From: Octopus sinensis | Taxonomy: Eukaryota | DNA length: 64,000 bases | Assembly: GCF_006345805.1 (NCBI RefSeq) | Contig: NC_043000.1 | Location: forward strand, 154,628,001-154,692,000 | Direction: 5' to 3' | Part shown: one piece after another, positions 20,172 through 49,809 of the stretch | Layout of the letters: every line of letters starts with the position of its first letter | How positions within the stretch are numbered: the first letter of the stretch is position 1 | Notes under the pieces: model-generated | The model's database searches: none | Seen by the model: the letters and a program-made list of their open reading frames with translations, nothing else | Told to the model about the DNA's origin: nothing | Translations under genes and position numbers: made by a program

Positions 20172-21712
20172 TTAATGCCATTCTATGAACCGAGCTAAGG
20201 TTAAAACTCAGAAGTGATTCACCTATAGTTTTAGTATTTAGGTTATATCAAAATGTTAAGAAACATATTTATGTCATACACAAATTTATAAGCCATGTAG
20301 ATAGTATTGTTATCATATAGTTTGCACATGTAAAATATCTTTAATTTCTTACTATCATAATTAAGAATAAATAATCAGCTGGTGAAAGAGTTTCTAAGTT
20401 GTCTAATGCAGTTTTGTACATTCTTAATATATCTCTGATTTTTGTTTTTAGAATGAAGATTACATGTTTTAACTCCTGAATCTCAGGTCAGCATGTTTTG
20501 TAATAAGGACAACATCACCATAACCAGAAATATCAGATGAATATCTTATTTGATTGCAACTGGTTTGCTTTATGAAGAACTGTTCAGGCTACCCTGCAAA
20601 ACAACTATAAAACAAATATAAGAAAAATATCTAAGTTCATTTTAAGTGTATAGTTATATTGAAAGTTACATATTGTACTAATACAGAACATTTACAGTTC
20701 CGTATCGTAAGTTAGTTTGTTAACAAATGATAGTCATTATATTTTAGTATATTGGAAATATCAAGTAAACGAAGAAGACATTCACTTAATGAAAAGAAAA
20801 GATGGTTTGTTACAGAAGACAAAATATATCAGTATGTGGAGAACTTGTGACACAACTGTGACATAGTTTGATGTCTTCGAACAAACAATATGTTACATTA
20901 TAAATATTTTGAGTGTGGAGAACATGTAACAATATTGTTTCACAGTTTAGTATACTAAGAAAGATTATTAGTATGTTATAACACACTGTGGATACTAGTG
21001 TGTGGAGAACTTATAACAATACCATATCATAATTTAGTATACTGTCACAGACATGCTGATATGTAGCCTTGAAGTGTTATGTCATAACATATCTCAGATG
21101 ATTGACGTGTTATTATGGACATTTGTGAAGAACTTGTGACAGAGTTTAGTATATTAACCAGAAACAGCCATTGTTATATAAGAATATATCTATTGCTATA
21201 TGGGAGAACTTGTAACAGAACTGTGTTATAGTTTTGTATACTACCAGCAGCAATCATGTTACTAGAAATAAAATTGTATGTGGAGAATTTGTAACAGTAC
21301 CATGTGGAGATTTAGTATATCAGCAAAAGCGGCCAACATAGTAGCAAATTAATTGATATTAGGGTCTGGAGAATTTAAAATAATACCATGTCATAGCTTA
21401 GTACATGAATAAATTGTAGACTACAAAATTCTTCACCAAAATATATAAATAAATATAATAATAATAATAATTTAACCTCTAGAGTCAAGTCCTCGAGGTT
21501 CTGTTCCTTAGAATGCAAGGAGAGGGAGAGAGAGAGAGTGAGAGAGAGAGAAAGAGAGAGTGAAAGGGAGAGTGCATTTAGAAGAGAGTAAAGAACCAAA
21601 TTTTGATATACAACATTGAGATGGGAATAAAGTGTCAAGTGCCAGTGCTCTTACGAATTAACAATTGATTACAATACTACACCACCTGCTTATTTCTTTA
21701 CTGAGAAAATAA

Positions 21713-21793
21713 CTAAAGACTGTAGTAATGGCTTCTGCTGAAAGTTTTAAACAACCCTTGGATAAGTTTCTCTTCTATGACCCAGATCAATCA
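21713..21793 (+). pseudogene. CR1/L2-like LINE C-terminal remnant (duplicated at ~24871-24945)
   Basis: Translates LKTVVMASAESFKQPLDKFLFYDPDQS, which matches the ..VVxA..SFKxxLDKFL..PDQ end typical of CR1-group ORF2. Confidence 0.55.
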
Positions 21794-22088
21794 TCTTTAT
21801 TTACAAACCACATTACAACCAATAAAGAGTGACCTACAGCAACTAACTAATGCATTGACTATAACTATACACACACAGTCACTGACAAAGAAAATACAAT
21901 CCAACATACACTGTTAAAACTAAATAAAACCATTTATAGTACTCAAAAGAGGCAGTATTATAACATATCCAAAATACACAATGGTTCAAAGCATCTAAAG
22001 ATCTAAAGGACAAAATAAAGTCACTTTTTCAATTTATTAAATATATTAGTGAAGTATATGACTTAGCTTTAGTCAGAGTGTTACAGAA

Positions 22089-22265
22089 TATTGGTTTCAA
22101 ATTTTGGCACAAGGCCAGCAAGTTCGACCTCAGTACTCAGCAGGTACCTATTTTATTGACCCTAAAGGGATGGAAGGCAAAGTTGACCTCAGTCGATTTG
22201 AACTCAGAACATAAAGACAGATGAAATGGTGCTAAGCATTTTGCCTGCCTGGCATGCTAATAATT
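22089..22265 (-). mobile_element. degraded family A-related SINE
   Basis: Contains ggatggaaggcaaagttgacctcagtcgatttgaactcagaac. Confidence 0.75.
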
Positions 22266-22643
22266 TTTCACAATTCTCCATCTGTTACATAATATTAGCT
22301 ATAATAATATATAGAGAACATGCAACTTTAATATTCCGTAGTTTTGTGGTGGATGTGGTAAAGTACTCTAACATAACTTGGTATACTAAGTATTGGTATG
22401 TTATAATACATTACATATATTGGTATGTGGAGAAATGTTGTTGCTGTATTGTAATATATTATAGGTTAGTGGGGAACATTACAAATACTGCACAATAATT
22501 TAGTATACTAATTGTTGGTATGTTACAGTTCAGTACATATGTTAGTAAGTGGAGAACTGTTGCTGTACTGTAATACATTACAATTTAGTATATTAATACA
22601 GGAAGTTAGTATGTGAAGAACATGACAAAGAAGTGTATGATAA

Positions 22644-22723
22644 TTTAGTATACTAATAGTTTAGTATACTAATAGTTTAGTATACTAATAGTTTAGTATA
22701 CTAATAGTTTAGTATACTAATAG
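22644..22723. repeat. 5 x 16-bp perfect tandem repeat TTTAGTATACTAATAG
   Basis: Five exact copies, each containing the 12-bp palindrome TTAGTATACTAA. Confidence 0.95.
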
Positions 22724-23222
22724 TTAGTACATAAGTTTGAAACATTGGAAATGATATCTAAAAGTTTAGTAGACTAAAAAAAGAAGACATCTGGTATGTT
22801 ACTGAACATGAAACATATCATTATATGGAGAACTTGTGACATAACTGTGACATAGTGTGATATAGTCAAACAAACAATATGTTACATTACAAATATTTTG
22901 AGTGTGGAGAACATGTAACAATATTGTCTCACAGTTTAGTATACTAAGAAAGATTATTAGTATGTTATAACACACTGTGGATACTAGCGTGTGGAGAACT
23001 TATAACAATACCATATCATAATTTAGTATACTATCACAGACAGGTTGATATATTGCTTGGATGTGTTATGTTATAACATATCTTAGATGGTTGATATGTT
23101 ATTATAGATATATGTATATGAAGAATATATAATAGTACCATATTAGGAATTAGTGTACTAATAGAAACAGAAAACAAAAACAACAAACAGACAAGCAAAA
23201 ACAAAATGCTACTATTATGTAA

Positions 23223-23433
23223 GGCGGCAGGCTGGCAGAACCGTTAGCACGCCGGGCGAAAAGCGTAGCCATATTTCATCTGCCGTTACGTTCTGAGTTC
23301 AAATTCCGCTGAGGTCGACTTTGCCTTTCATCCTTTCGGGGTCGATAAATTAAGTACCAGTTACGCACTGGGGTCGATATCTGTCCTTGTTTGTCCCCTC
23401 TGTGTTTAGACCCTTGTGGGTAATAAAGGAACA
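23223..23433 (+). mobile_element. SINE family A
   Basis: GGCGGCAGGCTGGCAGAACCGTTAGC head, GTTCAAATTCC box B and Nin/Deu-like domain. Small internal deletion. Flanked by TATGTAA(GG) repeats. Confidence 0.9.
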
Positions 23434-26400
23434 TATGTAAGGAGGGCATATGATATATTTGTATATGGAGAAGCTGTAACAGGACTGTGTCACAATTTGG
23501 TATACTAACAGCAGCATATTACAAAACATGTATCAGTATACAGAGAATTTGTAATACTAATTTGTGCTATATCATAGCTGGGAAACACAATCATCCAAAT
23601 CAACTCAAGGAGAAAATGAAGTGTTTCAATCCATTAAATATATTAGGAGAGTATATGATTAATTATATACTTAATTATATTAATTATATGTTACAGAATA
23701 TTATGCATAATGGCAAGTGGGGAACATTACTATAATATACTACAGTTTAGTGCAATGTAGTGGAAACATGACAAAGTACTGAATCATATTTTAGTATACT
23801 ATCGGTATGTTACAGTACATTACATATATTTGTATGTGGAGAACTGTTGGTGTACTATAACATATCACAATTTAATATAGGACATGACAAAAGACTACTA
23901 TTTAGCATACTAACTGTTGGTATATTGCAGTACATTTTTTGTATGTGGAGAACTGCTGTTGTACTGCAATATATCATAGTTTAGTGGTGAACATGACAAA
24001 TACAATATAATAATATAGTATACTATCGGTTGAATTAGAAATTGAAGAAGTAACATATTTCTTTAATGATGTCTAAAAGTTCACTATATTAGATAAAAGA
24101 AGACAGTTGGTACATTACAGAACAAAAACGTATCATTATATGGAGAACTTGTCATATAACTGTGACATAGTTTAATATATTCAAACAAACAATATGTTAT
24201 GTTACAAATATTTTGTATGTGGAGAACATGTAACAGTGTTGTCTCACAGTTCAGTATACTAAGAAAGATTATTAGTATGTTATAACACACTGTGGATATC
24301 AGTGTGTGGAGAACTTATAACAATACCATATCATAATTTAGTATACTATCACAGACAGGCTGATATATTGCAGTGATGTGATATGTTATCACACAGCTAA
24401 GATATCAATATTTATGTGTAGAGAACTTGTGACAATACCACGATAGAATGTTGTATACTCTCAAACTCCCTGCATCTCCACTGAAAAACAAACAAAAAAT
24501 GATGTTATAAAAAAAAGACCATGTGATATATTTGTATGGTGAGAACTTGTAACAGGCCTGTTTAATAGTTTCGTATGCTATCTGCAGCTAACAGCATGTT
24601 ACAAAAGATGTAATATATCAACGTGTAGATAATTTGCAATTATACCGTGTGGTAGTTTAGTACATAAAAATATTCTGAACGAATAACTTTTCACTGAAAA
24701 GACCAGAAAATCATAACACCTCTGCTCTCCACAAATATCTATAAGTAATTGTTTAGAACCATGGCCCTTAGCTGTTTTGCCTAGAATGTGAAAGAAAGAG
24801 AAAGAAGAGAGAGAGAAAGAGAGAAAGAAAGAGAGAGAGAGAAAGAGAGAGAGAGAAAAAGAGAGAGAGGATTGTAACAAAGGCTTCTGCTAAAAATTTT
24901 AAACAAATCCTTGGATAAGTTTCTCCCCTGTCACAGATCAGTTATCTTTATCAGGCTATAACCAATAAAAGTAGTCTAGTGTAACTACTAAATGATACAT
25001 TAACTAAAAATATACACACAGTCATTGATAAAGAAAATACAATCCAAGATACAATCATCATCCTCCTCCTCCTCCTCCTCATCATCATCGTTTAACGTCC
25101 GTTTTCCATGCTAGTATGGGTTGGATGGATATGTTAAAACTAAATAAAGCCATATACAATACTCAATGGAGGAAGAATTACAGCATGTCCAGAATGCACA
25201 ATGGTTCAAACCAACAATAGAACAAAATAAATACATTATGTTTTGGTCTACTAAATATACTAATAAGGTAATTGGATTTAGTTTTAGAAAATGGCACATA
25301 ATGATAAGCGGAGAGTATATAACTATAATATACTGTAGTTTAGTAGCGTTAGTATGTAGCGAACTGTTGATGCTACAGTGCATGTGTATGTGGAGAACTG
25401 CTATTGTACAGTAATATATTATAGTTTAGTGGAGAACATGATTGCATAATAATTTAGTGTACTAATAGTTTGTAAGTAGATTTGAGATATAAGAAATTGA
25501 AGAAGTAACATATTTGTCCAATGATGTCTAAAAGTTCAGTAAACTAAAAAAAGAAGACAGTATGTATAAAACATATCAGTATGTGGAGAACTTGTGACAT
25601 AGTTTGATATATTCAAAAAATATGTTACATTACAAATATTTTGAGTGTGGAGAACATGTAACAATATTATCTCACAGTTTAGTATACTAAGGAAGATTAT
25701 TAGTATGTTATAACACACTGTGGATACTAGTGTGTGGAGAACTTATAACAATACCATATTATAATTTAGTATACTGTTACAGACATGCTGATATGTTGCC
25801 TTGAGTGTGTTATGTCATAGCATATCTCATGATTAGTATGTTATTATAGATTATAGATAAAAATACTATAGATATTTTTATCCAGAGAACATGTAGCACT
25901 ACCATGTCAAAGTTTAGTGTACTACAAAACAGATTGCCATTATTATATAACGATATATCTATTGTTGAATGGGAAAACTTGTAACAGGATTGTGTTACTG
26001 TTTTATATACTAACGTTTTCTACATCTAGAAAATTTTGGTGGGTAAAGCACCAAAATTTGGTATACAGCATTGATATAAGAATAAAATGTTAAGTGCCAA
26101 AGAATATATAACAGAATTGTAGCATATCATATATTACTAATTCATTTGCTATTTTAACACATATAGGTCAATTTGGGGAGAACACGACAGTCTTGTATGA
26201 TAATTTTATATACTCATAGTTGATTTGTTACAGTACATTACATATAGTATAATATGGAGAATATGTAAGAGTATTGTACCGTAATTTAGTATTTGGTAAA
26301 TTTGTATTTGTACAATATCATGGTTACAGCACATAAGTGATGGCTATATATGGAAAGGTATGTCACAATTTGGTATCACAGCAATTTGATATTCTAATAA

Positions 26401-27249
26401 AATTAGTATATAACAGTATGATACATTTATCAACATGTAGTGAACGTATAACAGTATAATTTAACAACTTGTATTGGCACAAAATGATATATTGGTAACA
26501 AAAGAGCATGATTAATTGAATTGACCTCAGTGTCTAACTGGTACTAGTTTCTACTGATCTGGGGAAATATGATCTTGGAACACACTAGGAGGAATTAAAT
26601 ACTTCAAGGCATTTAATATAGTGCTCTATCATTTTCTGCTATTACATCACCTCCAATAATCTATTATATTTGACAATAACAGATGGCATGATATAATACA
26701 TAACTCACAACATATAATAGAATTATGCCAAAATTTAGTATGTTCCTATTATAAGTTGAACAATGTTTATATTAGTAGATTTGCAATATATTTCAGTACA
26801 ATGTCACAACATAATTTACTAACAGGGGAAAATATGTACATTACATATGTTACTATGTAGAAAAACATGTGTATCTCTGCTTCAAAATTTTGCATAACGA
26901 AAAGACTAAAGGCATGTTCAAATGTTGTATATATTATAGTATATGGTTGCATCGTAAGCTGTTGTTTCATATTGTAACTTAGTATAATAACAGATTTGTA
27001 TGTACAAGTCTATTGCATATATTTGTGAAAAGTGTGACTGTATCACAGTTTAATATAGAAAGTTTATGTTACAGTATATTGCATAAGGAGTAGTATATTG
27101 TGACAAGTTTGTGACATTACTTTAGCAGATTAAAAACCTATGTCACATTTTTGGGGAGTCAGAGGTTGCATATGTTACAATACATACAACATGGAGAATA
27201 TGTAATAGTGTTTTAGTTAGTTAAACTGCAGCCATGCTGGGGCACCGCC

Positions 27250-27642
27250 TTACTCTTTTACTTGTTTCAGTCATTTGACTGCGGCCATGCTGGAGTACCA
27301 CCTTTAGTCGAGCAACTCGCCCCCGGGACTTATTCTTTGTAAGCCCAGTACTTATTCTATCAGTCTCTTTTGCCGAACCTCTAAGTGACGGGGACATAAA
27401 CACACCAGCATCGGTTGTCAAGCAATGCTAGGGGGACAAACACAGACACACAAACACACACATATATATATATACATATATATGACGAGCTTCTTTCAGT
27501 TTCCGTCTACCAAATCCACTCACAAGGCTTTGGTCGGCCCGAGGCTATAGTAGAAAGCACTTGCCCAAGATGCCATGCAGTGGGACTGAACCTGGAACCA
27601 TGTGGTTGGTAAACAAGCTACTTACCACACATCCACTCCTGC
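27250..27642 (-). mobile_element. SINE family C (CORE-like), near full length
   Basis: The minus strand has the head GGAGTGGATGTGTGGTAAG, box B GGTTCAGTCCC, GGCATCTTGGGCAAGTG and a tail ending GTAAAAGAGTAA. Confidence 0.9.
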
Positions 27643-28471
27643 ATTTTAATGTATGTGTCATTATGTTACAGTAGAGCTTTACTGTATGTAAAGAAAGATA
27701 TTATGTCAGAGTTTAGTAAGAAATAAAAACCATTATGTTACAGTACATTACAAACATTATTTTGTGGAGAACATGTAATGTTGCTGTATCATATTGTAGT
27801 TTATTCATTAGCAAAGTTATCTAATATAACTATCATAGGGTAGATATAATTAACTTTACTAACCAGAAGTCACCATCCTAAATAGGAATGTCATCAGATA
27901 AGTGATCTTAGATATACTGTATCTGAATAAATAACTAACTAATTATGGGTAGATTACTTCAGAAATGTCCTACATTTGGGTGGCCTGTGGTTAAACAACA
28001 ATTCCCTATTTTTATAACAGATGATAAATGTTGATTTCTTTGGACTAACTTCATGGTTAATTTATTTTGTAAGAGATTAAGTGGATGGGAGGGGACAATC
28101 AATTGACCCAACCTAATCATGTTACCTTATGTTACCTTCAAGGGATGAAAAACAAAGATGGCTGCCAATAGGAATTTAACTCATTCAGATAAGAGAAGCA
28201 TTGGATTGGTTACAATGAAGAGTCCAGATAGGTGCACGTTATTGCTCTGTCAATGTCAACAACCTTCAATACATAATACATGCAAAATGGTATGTTTTTG
28301 ATTCCACATTATTAGGGAAGACTGTGTAAGCAATTGAGTCAACCATGTGATATTACAGGTATTTATTTTAGCTGTTTGATTTGTACTTTAACAGAATTTG
28401 AGTTCATTGCGATTATGGAAAAAAAACCCCAAACAAATGAATAAGTAATGTGTGGGGAGAAACTGAATTCT

Positions 28472-33554: not shown

Positions 33555-33758
33555 CTATAGGCACAATACCTAAAATTTGGGGAAGTGGGGATAATCAGTT
33601 GCGCTCCAGTGCTCAGGTGGTCACTTATTTTGTTGACCCTGAAAGAATGAAAGGCAAAGTTGACCTTGGCAGAATTTGAACTCAGAACGTAAAGACGGAT
33701 GAAATGATGCAAAGCTTTTTTGCCTGGCATGCCAATGATTCTGGCAGATTGCTGCCTT
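33555..33758 (-). mobile_element. older family A-related SINE
   Basis: Contains gaatgaaaggcaaagttgaccttggcagaatttgaactcagaacg. Same subfamily as 56538-56743. Confidence 0.8.
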
Positions 33759-33813
33759 AATAATAATAATAATAATAATAATGATAATAGTAATAATAAT
33801 AATAATAATAATA

Positions 33814-33844
<31 letters not shown>

Positions 33845-33908
33845 TGATTATAATAATAATGATAATAACAATAATGATTATAATAATAATGGTAATAATA
33901 ATAATAAT

Positions 33909-34380
33909 GGCATCATCGAAAATGCTAATGCAAAGATCCTGTGGGATTTTAGGATTCAGTGTGACCATGAGATAGAGAATAGGAAGCCAGACATAGTCTT
34001 AATTGAGAAAGAAAACAAACTATGTTGGATCATAGATATAGCATGCCCAGTTGACAACAAGGTATATGATAAGGAAGAAAGAAAAGTCGATAGATATGAC
34101 AAGTTAGCTTGGGAGGTTAAGCAGTTGTTGTCGATGGAAAAGGTGGTAGTAGTACCAATAACTGTCTGAGCCCTGGGAACAGTGAGTAAAAATCTTGAGA
34201 TGTACATGGAACAAACAAGGGCTGCAATAAAGGTGGAGCACTTGCAGAAAGCAGCACTGCTTGGAACAGCTCGAATACTCTGGAAGGTGCTCGAAAAATA
34301 AGGGGTGTTACCTTAGTTCACTGGTAGTGAACAGCTGACACTGTAGTACATCTCTAGCTTTAGAAGCTGTGCAAAGGCAA
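33909..34380 (+). pseudogene. 5'-truncated R4/Dong-like LINE: restriction-like endonuclease domain plus 3' UTR
   Basis: One frame reads GIIENANAKILWDFRIQCDHEIENRKPDIV...IIDIACP...KEERKVDRYDKL...VVPITV*ALG...LQKAALLGTARILWKVLEK* (stop 34299-34301). A single internal stop falls in the GALG motif. (TAA)n on both sides. Confidence 0.92.
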
Positions 34381-48490: not shown

Positions 48491-49809
48491 TTCTTTTTCA
48501 AGTGTATTTCAAATTTTTGTTTCCATCAAAGGCTTAAAGGATTTTTTGTATGCATATATCTTTTTTTGGTGAGAGATATGTTTGGTTGTTTGTATTGCTT
48601 TATCTAGTTTCATTGAGCTACAGCTATAAATATGAATTTATCTGTTCAACTAATGAAAGTAGTTTGTTTTCTGGTCAAATCTATTTCATTAGGTGGAATA
48701 AGAAGAGCTTGGGAGTGTCTCATATTGTAGTATTATTAATATTCATGGTTGGGATATTATTGCTAATATCCATTTTGAATTTTTTCTTTCATCAGAGACT
48801 GAAGGGTTTGAAAACTTCTTTTTGGGAAGAAAAATGATGTTGCTTTGTGCTTTTGTTAAACTAAATGCTTGTCAAGTCACTTTGTTTCCTCAAAAAGCAG
48901 TATGATATAATGGAAGAAATTGAGAGTATCACATATTGATATTAATATTCATGGTGATTGATCTTTGCAGGTGACATTGCTAATGTATTTTTTAACCTTT
49001 TGTTGTGATCAATATTAAATATCGCTAGAACACTTGTGTCTGTATCGGTTTTGTTTTTCATTTGGCTTGTCAATTGATTATAAATTGTTTGGCATTATTG
49101 TCTATGTTATTTTTGTCAATGCTTGCTCTTATCTGTTGTATTAATACATTACACATACACACATGTATGTATATATATGTGTATGCCAGGCATTAAATGA
49201 TGATGTATATAGTTTGGTATGTTTTGATCAAGTTACATTTTATTGTCTTTGTGTACGTATGCATTAGGTGTACTACATGTTTAACTTGAGTTAGCAGTTT
49301 GGGGTTTGATTCTTCCAGCTATCAATTTTTTGGAAACTGGGGATGAAGGACTGTTGCTTTATTCTGTTTTGAATTTGGACAATTTGTTAAAAGTGAATTT
49401 ATTATGGTATCTGACTTGCAATAAAACTTAATTTTGGTTGTTTAGTGAATATGTATTTTTGTTTGATTATGTTGTATCTTTCTTAAGGAGAAATACAAGA
49501 ACCAGTTATGTAATGGTGACGTACAATCAATTATTATTATGGTTGTGATTATACTGTTTTCATTTAACTCCCAGATGTATTTAGACAGAGATGTAGTTTT
49601 CCTTCTGTTTATATTCCAAAATGTGTATGTTTGTTGTTTCTATCTGTCTTTGAATATTTAGTTTGTCCTCTTTGTGATACTGTTGCTAATTAGACTGTAT
49701 TTGAAGGCAGTTATTTTGTAATGGGTGTGTTCTTGTTTTGTGAAGTTGCATGAGTTTGCACTATGAATTGTATGTCCTTTATACATTGTTGTTCAATGAC
49801 TGTCTGCTC

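Follow-up and report, generated by a model that had tools for sequence, protein, structure and literature searches.

Why should about 100 bp of DNA remain nearly invariant in four tandem copies at one Octopus sinensis locus while the sequence around each copy decays? In the 64,000-nucleotide stretch analyzed here (the window), the four cores start at 20941, 22930, 24245 and 25673 (copies A to D), and over 103 bases copies B, C and D differ from A at 1, 3 and 2 positions, just as a preliminary description of the locus had it, versus 80-88% identity in the flanks of the repeat units. Identity varies along the duplicated blocks: in 40-column sliding windows it is 92-100% over the core and falls to about 70-90% within 60-100 bases on both sides. 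Substitutions are correspondingly rarer in the core than in the adjacent alignable flanks for B versus A (1/103 vs 30/164, Fisher P = 2e-6), C versus A (3/103 vs 32/164, P = 3e-5) and D versus A (2/103 vs 21/164, P = 1e-3). The right edge of conservation, which is the 5' side on the minus strand, is abrupt and lies at the last paired base of a predicted hairpin, 21043/21044; to the left of the core the fall-off is gradual, and it is the same interval that is kept in all four copies. The near-invariance first described stands, but the ~100-bp limits then given to it do not, the constrained stretch continuing leftward, in three of the four copies, for another 60 bases or so (20884-20940).

Each core is a single monomer from a minisatellite that decayed and was then re-amplified as four units of 1.3-2 kb. 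The array (20685-27807, assigned to neither strand) is confined to a single locus and has a monomer of ~82 nt made up of two ~41-nt halves; 46 whole or partial monomers, all in the same orientation, were detected with a motif-blind HMM at E <= 0.05, no further array was found in the 664 kb around the locus, and genome searches gave matches at the array locus only. A palindrome-rich 82-nt repeat decayed, and duplication of a 1.3-2 kb block then produced the four units before a second species, here called organism D, diverged; conservation persisted only in the 95-nt interval from palindrome to palindrome and in the monomer 3' of it. The basal stem of the core is two neighboring copies of the palindrome and arises automatically where these adjoin, while the bulged TGGAGAAC and the stems are ancestral features of every array monomer rather than of the core alone. 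As to the LINE-derived block said to be co-duplicated with the core, a non-array spacer at 21718-22072 (no strand assigned) is indeed co-duplicated with 24870-25287 (75% and 73% identity), though it is whole in only two of the four units, and its possible origin as a very old LINE 3' remnant is weakly suggested by 9/18 residues identical to a nearby ORF remnant (pairwise E 0.002); no other genomic copy of this block was found. Also unstranded are a recent, near-perfect 16-nt tandem expansion of the array palindrome at 22640-22729 (5.7 copies, 97%, folding at -30.6 kcal/mol) and a dispersed repeat, presumably SINE-like, inserted in unit B at 23210-23439 and with many matches elsewhere in the window. 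The array contains no credible protein-coding ORF, and decayed zinc-finger repeats, suggested by a period of ~84 nt, were rejected by eye on motif spacing.

Purifying selection and local gene conversion had both been offered as the cause of the invariance, and the orthologous locus of organism D bears on the choice between them. That species, ~7% divergent in flank sequence, has all four units, unit D with its 11-nt deletion among them, and the DNA contig from it shows 0/91 differences in the copy A core versus 23/341 in the orthologous flank (P 0.002-0.004). Selection is therefore favored over conversion of a recent, species-specific kind, which is not needed. It might also be supposed that the core has no function, and that gene conversion homogenized it before the species split and left it little time to diverge; the gradual fall-off on the left, the mosaic relationships among the flanks of the units and the use of one species as the outgroup speak for this, but the core-to-flank contrast between species, the abrupt right boundary and the preservation of the same interval in all four copies make it improbable. 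One minisatellite monomer has thus barely changed, whether among its four tandem copies or between two species.

The ~95-nt hairpin of the preliminary description is also predicted here, on either strand (z -2.4 to -3.5 across the four copies on the plus strand, -2.8 to -4.1 on the minus), but the RNA evidence points to the minus strand and not to the plus strand on which it had been drawn. On the minus strand, copy A (20949-21043) is predicted to form a 10-bp basal stem, a 5x4 loop, helices of 3+6+6/7 bp, an 8-nt bulge and an apical stem of 7-9 bp. Copies B (22938-23032) and C (24253-24347) fold as A does, and the lower part of copy D (25681-25775) re-pairs. Within the array, the 104-nt windows holding the four cores rank among the most stable (-24.8 to -29.2 vs a mean of -15.2 +/- 5.1 over 609 windows). 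None of the 22 pairs in helices 1 and 3 varies across the copies, and compensatory base changes were found at 0/50 pairs. Next to the core on the same strand lies a second predicted monomer hairpin (20883-20940), with a 16-bp stem and a 25-nt loop, which is near-invariant in copies A, B and D and eroded in C; five of its 16 pairs are broken, each in one copy.

The RNA evidence concerns position 20956 in the predicted basal stem (22945, 24260 and 25688 in the other copies). Reads were compared on copy A coordinates, using contigs of three runs guessed to be RNA (X7, X12 and X20, under three species labels) and one DNA run, X14, the DNA control coming from organism D only. On the plus strand, C is read in place of T in 39.1/39.1 for X20 (4 contigs), 176.2/256 for X7 (2 contigs) and 4.1/4.1 for X12 (1 contig, depth 4), versus 0/120.4 for X14, and all four copies in the window have T. 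This T>C change in all three RNA-guessed runs and not in the DNA run is the signature of A-to-I editing and likely reflects editing of a minus-strand RNA, since T>C on the plus strand implies transcription of the minus. The position thus behaves as a site-selective ADAR substrate would, with A in DNA, G in the RNA-guessed runs, a predicted duplex in which the A pairs with U, and a UAG context; a UAG with both neighbors in Watson-Crick pairs is reported as the preferred context of pri-microRNA editing (PMC2532740). Editing screens limited to uniquely mapping reads are described as missing repeated sites (PMC9699675).

What, then, is being conserved? The reading ranked first here, held tentatively and at somewhat below an even chance, is that the cores encode a set of four pri-microRNA hairpins, paralogues of one another, carried by a non-coding RNA from the minus strand that likely undergoes A-to-I editing immediately beneath the predicted Drosha cut. 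The transcript would come from the strand of the Shaw/Kv3 channel gene that ends 47 kb upstream, and its basal stem would, judging from the T>C change, fold in vivo sufficiently for ADAR editing of the UAG; the Microprocessor is predicted to cut 13/11 nt above the hairpin base and Dicer below the 27-nt loop, yielding a 22/23-nt duplex with a 3p product starting with U. By analogy, the edit at +3 may tune cropping and the four copies may raise the dose. Under the 13/11-nt Drosha rule (register 1), the predicted 5p (star) arm of copy A is the 22 nt at 21009-21030 and the predicted 3p (mature) arm the 23 nt at 20959-20981, both on the minus strand, the latter being invariant in the four copies except for the last-but-one base in D. 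These arms, the loop and the predicted 72-nt precursor fall within the MirGeneDB limits (arm 20-27 nt, loop at least 8 nt, precursor below 80 nt in molluscs), and the identity with organism D supplies the conservation in two or more species that is expected of a microRNA. MirGeneDB further looks for 20-27-nt reads from both arms with homogeneous 5' ends and 2-nt offsets, of which the 2-nt overhangs are predicted here.

The pairing of the arms is borderline, with 16 pairs by duplexfold and 15.3 expected in copies A-C, and 13 and 13.4 in copy D, the MirGeneDB threshold being at least 16; the duplex energy is -10.9 kcal/mol vs -19.2 for the mir-184 of the same genome (expected pairs 15.3 vs 17.0). 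MirGeneDB arms are reported to have 19 +/- 1.6 pairs, and 3p matures with U at 1 and 9 and a star starting with A are described in MirGeneDB 3.0 (PMC11701709). The predicted 3p arm does have U at 1 and 9 and the predicted star does start with A, which is weak evidence in sequence that is 70% A+T. Read from the sequence, register 1 has none of the optional basal UG, apical UGUG, CNNC and CmR/GHG motifs, and a C:G pair at -5/+3 is seen in register 2 alone, where the duplex is weaker at 14 pairs. A loose scan for pre-miRNA geometry did not discriminate, giving 51 matches in the 7.4-kb array and 62 in a 14.95-kb control, and among the cores it found only copy D, in another register.

Rfam gave no match at gathering score in the 64 kb and, on the cores, none at E <= 10 except a 23-bit snoZ165 match lying mostly on flank; no protein family was found for the core. 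H/ACA snoRNAs are built as hairpin-ANANNA-hairpin-ACA, with pockets 14-16 nt from the boxes; here an ANANNA hexamer does lie between the hairpins in all four copies, but it is ~22 nt from the nearest internal loop and there is no conserved ACA, and this class was rejected. Also rejected were a guide for another genomic target, the 17-mer concerned being present in the four cores only, and a plus-strand mirtron, which the direction of the edit contradicts. Of the 13 bases at positions 6-18 in the 3' arm of the genome's mir-184 hairpin, an arm that we take to be the mature one, 12 recur in the plus strand of the core; a relation to miR-184 was dismissed, the minus-strand RNA being without a seed match. 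Six 15-16-mers from the arms or loop had no match in the main text of the literature, a literature search on cephalopod lncRNAs gave no paper, and the Zolotarov supplements other than Data S1-S4 gave no sequence match. A large expansion of novel microRNA families has been reported for octopus (PMC9699675), and MirGeneDB may already list the hairpin.

A single microRNA does not explain why the second monomer is conserved as well. Conservation of both adjacent monomers would be accounted for by a structured RNA module of another kind, in which two tandem stem-loops, present four times in a lncRNA or in Shaw read-through RNA, each present the same pyrimidine-rich 9-mer unpaired as a platform for a protein or ADAR (a retention, decay or localization signal). 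The stem-end and loop motif is invariant in both monomers and is predicted to be unpaired on the minus strand (0.75-0.88 across 35 monomers), the RNA-guessed contigs are collinear with DNA across the unit, and the short edited stem, internal loop and longer stem resemble editing-inducer elements as described in PMC5654063. Over the whole array, however, the motif columns (kept at 52-85%) are no better conserved than others in a motif-blind alignment, the strong conservation of the loop motif over all monomers in a motif-anchored model vanishing with the motif-blind one. RNAalifold finds no consensus structure over 21 monomers, and no duplex of the core with Shaw exons, as an editing-complementary sequence would form, rises clearly above the opposite-strand control. 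Such a module is a possibility to which we give about a quarter of our belief.

The surroundings of the array suggest two further explanations. It lies 47-54 kb past the stop codon of the minus-strand Shaw/Kv3 gene, all seven mapped coding exons of which lie past the end of the window, with the stop at ~74.57 kb on window numbering, and this places the array outside any known coding intron; ORF scoring found no other gene in the 664 kb around it, small exons being easily missed by this method. A non-coding stretch at this distance from a neural channel gene, rich in short palindromes, could be an enhancer or factor-binding cluster for Shaw that is selected as DNA, with RNA and editing as by-products of read-through across palindromic DNA; introns and UTRs are reported to hold most octopus editing, which does not have to be functional (PMC9699675). 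Against a DNA element of this kind, which we regard as unlikely, stand the near-invariance of every base, a boundary exactly at the stem base, and the fact that the conserved monomer is also the best-folding one.

The other explanation is an editing-gated splice acceptor, the edited A belonging to an AG downstream of a branch-point-like heptamer and a brief pyrimidine tract; editing would then switch off an alternative last exon or microexon that truncates the Shaw tail. This order of motifs is present, the change in copy D keeps a pyrimidine, a splice from any Shaw phase-1 C-terminal donor would meet a stop after two residues, and one O. vulgaris gene model extends Shaw into the window, to 53244. 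The acceptor nevertheless scores only -1.3 to -1.5 (rank 78-87 of 307 array AGs) versus 2.9-10.8 in five real Shaw acceptors, no spliced joint or loose end occurs at the site among the matches listed for three runs, 0/200 proteins end with the predicted tail, and octopus splice sites are reported to be very rarely altered by editing (PMC9699675); we consider it very improbable. A bolder combination, somewhat less doubtful than that but still unlikely, is an ADAR-gated switch derived from a decayed minisatellite downstream of Kv3/Shaw, in which the single near-complete edit of four identical hairpins would determine whether read-through RNA is cropped to a microRNA (or spliced to a truncated channel tail), coupling editing to a non-coding regulatory output.

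Known systems offer partial parallels to a pri-microRNA cluster. The rodent Sfmbt2/C2MC and primate C19MC clusters, reportedly of repeat origin, are alike in their tandem near-identical hairpins, decaying flanks and local duplication; the octopus array differs in having only four constrained copies among 46 monomers, a weak duplex, a long loop and processing that is a candidate one. Drosophila hp-CG4068 hairpin RNAs, said to be tandem palindromic repeats, also resemble this edited, palindrome-rich tandem array, but no long perfect duplex forms in octopus. Molluscs appear to be without a dedicated siRNA pathway (PMC12479628). The miR-376 cluster, pri-let-7g and pri-miR-379/411 are likewise reported to be edited site-selectively and at a high level, at a paired UAG distant from the loop (PMC2532740). 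The octopus site, unlike theirs, is on the 3' strand beneath the predicted Drosha cut and would leave the mature sequence unchanged, and its A pairs with U, not with the most favored C. The GluA2 Q/R and Gabra3 editing-inducer substrates share the short edited duplex, internal loop and longer stem, with apparently high editing (PMC5654063), whereas the octopus element is non-coding and affects no codon, and an inducer role for it is putative.

If the cores are a microRNA cluster, they would represent a traceable birth of genes from junk, with the 46 sister monomers as a neutral background for one hairpin that was picked and then copied. The cluster would also provide a counter-example to the published conclusion that, in octopus, editing and microRNA function are decoupled, a conclusion drawn from mature sequences and target sites and not from precursors (PMC9699675). 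Should small-RNA reads prove to be absent, a 160-nt non-coding RNA element under strong constraint and likely edited in three species remains worth explaining.

The near-invariant core of about 100 bp occurs in four copies, A to D, starting at 20941, 22930, 24245 and 25673, where the preliminary description had placed it; compared with the first, the later copies carry 1, 3 and 2 substitutions in 103 bases, as against 30, 32 and 21 over 164 bases of adjacent alignable flank (Fisher P 2e-6, 3e-5 and 1e-3). Identity along the duplicated blocks, which that description had proposed to scan in sliding windows, is not uniform and has its maximum on the core: it drops immediately to the right of 21043 in the A-B and A-C comparisons and declines gradually to the left, across about 60-140 bases. 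Searches of the genome with the core, a two-motif pattern, a 17-mer and a neighbouring block matched only the present locus.

The core is a single monomer within a larger array. Using a profile blind to the 10-mer motif, 46 whole or partial monomers of ~82 nt each were identified between 20.7 and 27.8 kb, with a consensus of two alike ~41-nt halves that ends with a 10-12-nt palindrome. The majority show decay, with column identity averaging 56% across 21 monomers, and no common fold was found among the decayed ones. The 10-mer itself, allowing up to 2 mismatches, is found 39 times on the plus strand and 3 times on the minus strand in 9 kb, versus 25 times in the remaining 55 kb of the window; its columns are kept no better than the others (52-85%) once ascertainment is removed by the motif-blind profile. 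Superimposed on the array are the four units of 1.3-2 kb, which carry a non-array spacer as well as insertions of dispersed repeats. Since the basal stem consists of the palindromes of two adjoining monomers, the hairpin fold (20949-21043 in copy A) is expected by construction; the invariance of the core interval alone is not. On folding, the four cores rank among the array's most stable windows, the other top places going to dispersed repeats, a perfect 16-nt tandem of recent origin and one more stretch near 26.6 kb. At 22640-22729 a recent re-expansion of the basal-stem palindrome has produced a 16-nt tandem (5.7 copies, 97%); its predicted fold is a long, seemingly perfect stem that would contain several UAG sites.

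The stretch is present in public runs under four organism labels, and four runs were compared with copy A. In organism D, the orthologous left flank shows 23 differences in 341 positions and the 91-nt core contig, at about twice single-copy depth, shows none (P 0.002-0.004 versus flank); the cross-species conservation predicted under selection is thus seen, and that the core has no function appears quite improbable. The organism D contigs have loose ends that correspond to flanking sequence of units B, C and D, and unit D's 11-nt deletion is common to organism D, so the four-unit layout is older than the species split. Copy A's differences at 20901 and 20939, in the second monomer hairpin (20883-20940), are missing from the organism D contigs; this monomer is therefore more conserved than the window alone implies.

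Position 20956 is C in three runs whose RNA origin is a guess -- at 39.1 of 39.1 for organism D (X20), 176.2 of 256 for organism A (X7) and 4.1 of 4.1 in the one low-depth contig of organism B (X12) -- while it is T in all four window copies and in the organism D DNA run X14 (C in 0 of 120.4), a single control from another individual. T to C on the plus strand corresponds to A to G on the minus strand, which is the signature left when minus-strand RNA undergoes A-to-I editing, and the element is probably so edited, with level and strand taken from contigs rather than reads. The A in question sits in a UAG, both of its neighbours being paired in the predicted fold; this is the preferred editing context in pri-microRNAs (PMC2532740). 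A second T-to-C change, at 20938, appears in 2 of 2 X20 contigs and in a single contig of the DNA run; it reflects either a minor editing site or a copy-C variant together with a polymorphism. Contigs of the RNA-guessed runs are collinear with DNA, with no spliced joint among the contig rows listed. That editing gates a splice acceptor is very improbable: the site is weak, and no matching isoform was found among 200 proteins.

The favoured reading, held tentatively, is that the four cores form a pri-microRNA cluster. The predicted minus-strand stem measures 33 and 34 nt from its base to a 27-nt loop. Drosha cuts 13 and 11 nt above the stem base; such cuts would give a 72-nt precursor with 22- and 23-nt arms (5p star 21009-21030, 3p mature 20959-20981) and 2-nt overhangs, and the edited A would lie three bases below the predicted cut. 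The predicted 3p arm, identical across copies except for its last-but-one base, has U at 1 and 9, and the predicted star begins with A; these features, with the arm lengths, overhangs and precursor, match the MirGeneDB 3.0 description (PMC11701709). Against this, about 15 pairs are predicted in the duplex (13 in copy D), whose energy is half that of mir-184 in this genome, no processing motif is present with the cuts so placed, compensatory changes were not found, and similar loose geometry is frequent in A+T-rich DNA (51 matches in the 7.4 kb of array and 62 in 14.95 kb of control sequence). The adjoining monomer, moreover, is conserved as well. An RNA module other than a microRNA is a more doubtful reading, and a DNA element is unlikely.

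Some other likenesses were noted. Of the 13 bases at positions 6-18 in the mir-184 3' arm (L012:1550-1571), 12 are complementary to the bulged motif with its flank (20989-21011, minus), and there is no seed match; this is probably chance. The start of 48574-48600 (plus) resembles a miR-190-family mature sequence, but the stretch is no more stable on folding than shuffled sequence (z -1.25), has no Rfam support and is probably also a chance match. An ORF remnant at 33708-34169 (plus), similar to the end of an RT ORF at L031:4768-6510, resembles the endonuclease region at the C-terminal end of a non-LTR retroelement; it has no informative Pfam match.

Among protein genes found in 664 kb, the nearest encodes a Shaw/Kv3 channel on the minus strand (Pfam BTB_2 and Ion_trans). 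Its exons match Octopus Shaw proteins at 97-100% identity, and the seven coding exons that were mapped extend from 258.2 to 74.6 kb in window coordinates. The channel's C-terminal tail has optional exons of 39-42, 27 and 129 nt (minus strand, beyond the window at 168557-168516, 160144-160118 and 144135-144007; L053, L032 and L031) in introns tens of kb long. Also within a Shaw intron lies an intronless histone H3-like ORF (L054:4674-5090, minus; Pfam Histone E 7e-46); it has a number of unusual residues and may be a pseudogene copy. An automated O. vulgaris Shaw model (P0181) has two extra 3' exons matching inside the window at 58469-58401 and 53408-53244 (minus). The second has a good acceptor and an open frame and is single-copy; we give the extension little weight because it occurs in 1 of 34 Shaw isoforms inspected, and in no other, and because the first exon, where its mapped end falls, has neither a GT nor a GC donor. 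The array begins 47 kb beyond the Shaw stop on the same strand, and therefore outside any known coding intron; it may be carried on Shaw read-through RNA or on a separate non-coding transcript.

No Rfam family matched the element, and six arm or loop 15-16-mers were not found in the main text of any paper. The supplements of the octopus microRNA paper (PMC9699675) gave no sequence match in term searches of the PDF or in parts 1-2 of 3 of tables S1-S5; the locus may be one of that paper's novel families. The element is real and is probably both selected and transcribed.
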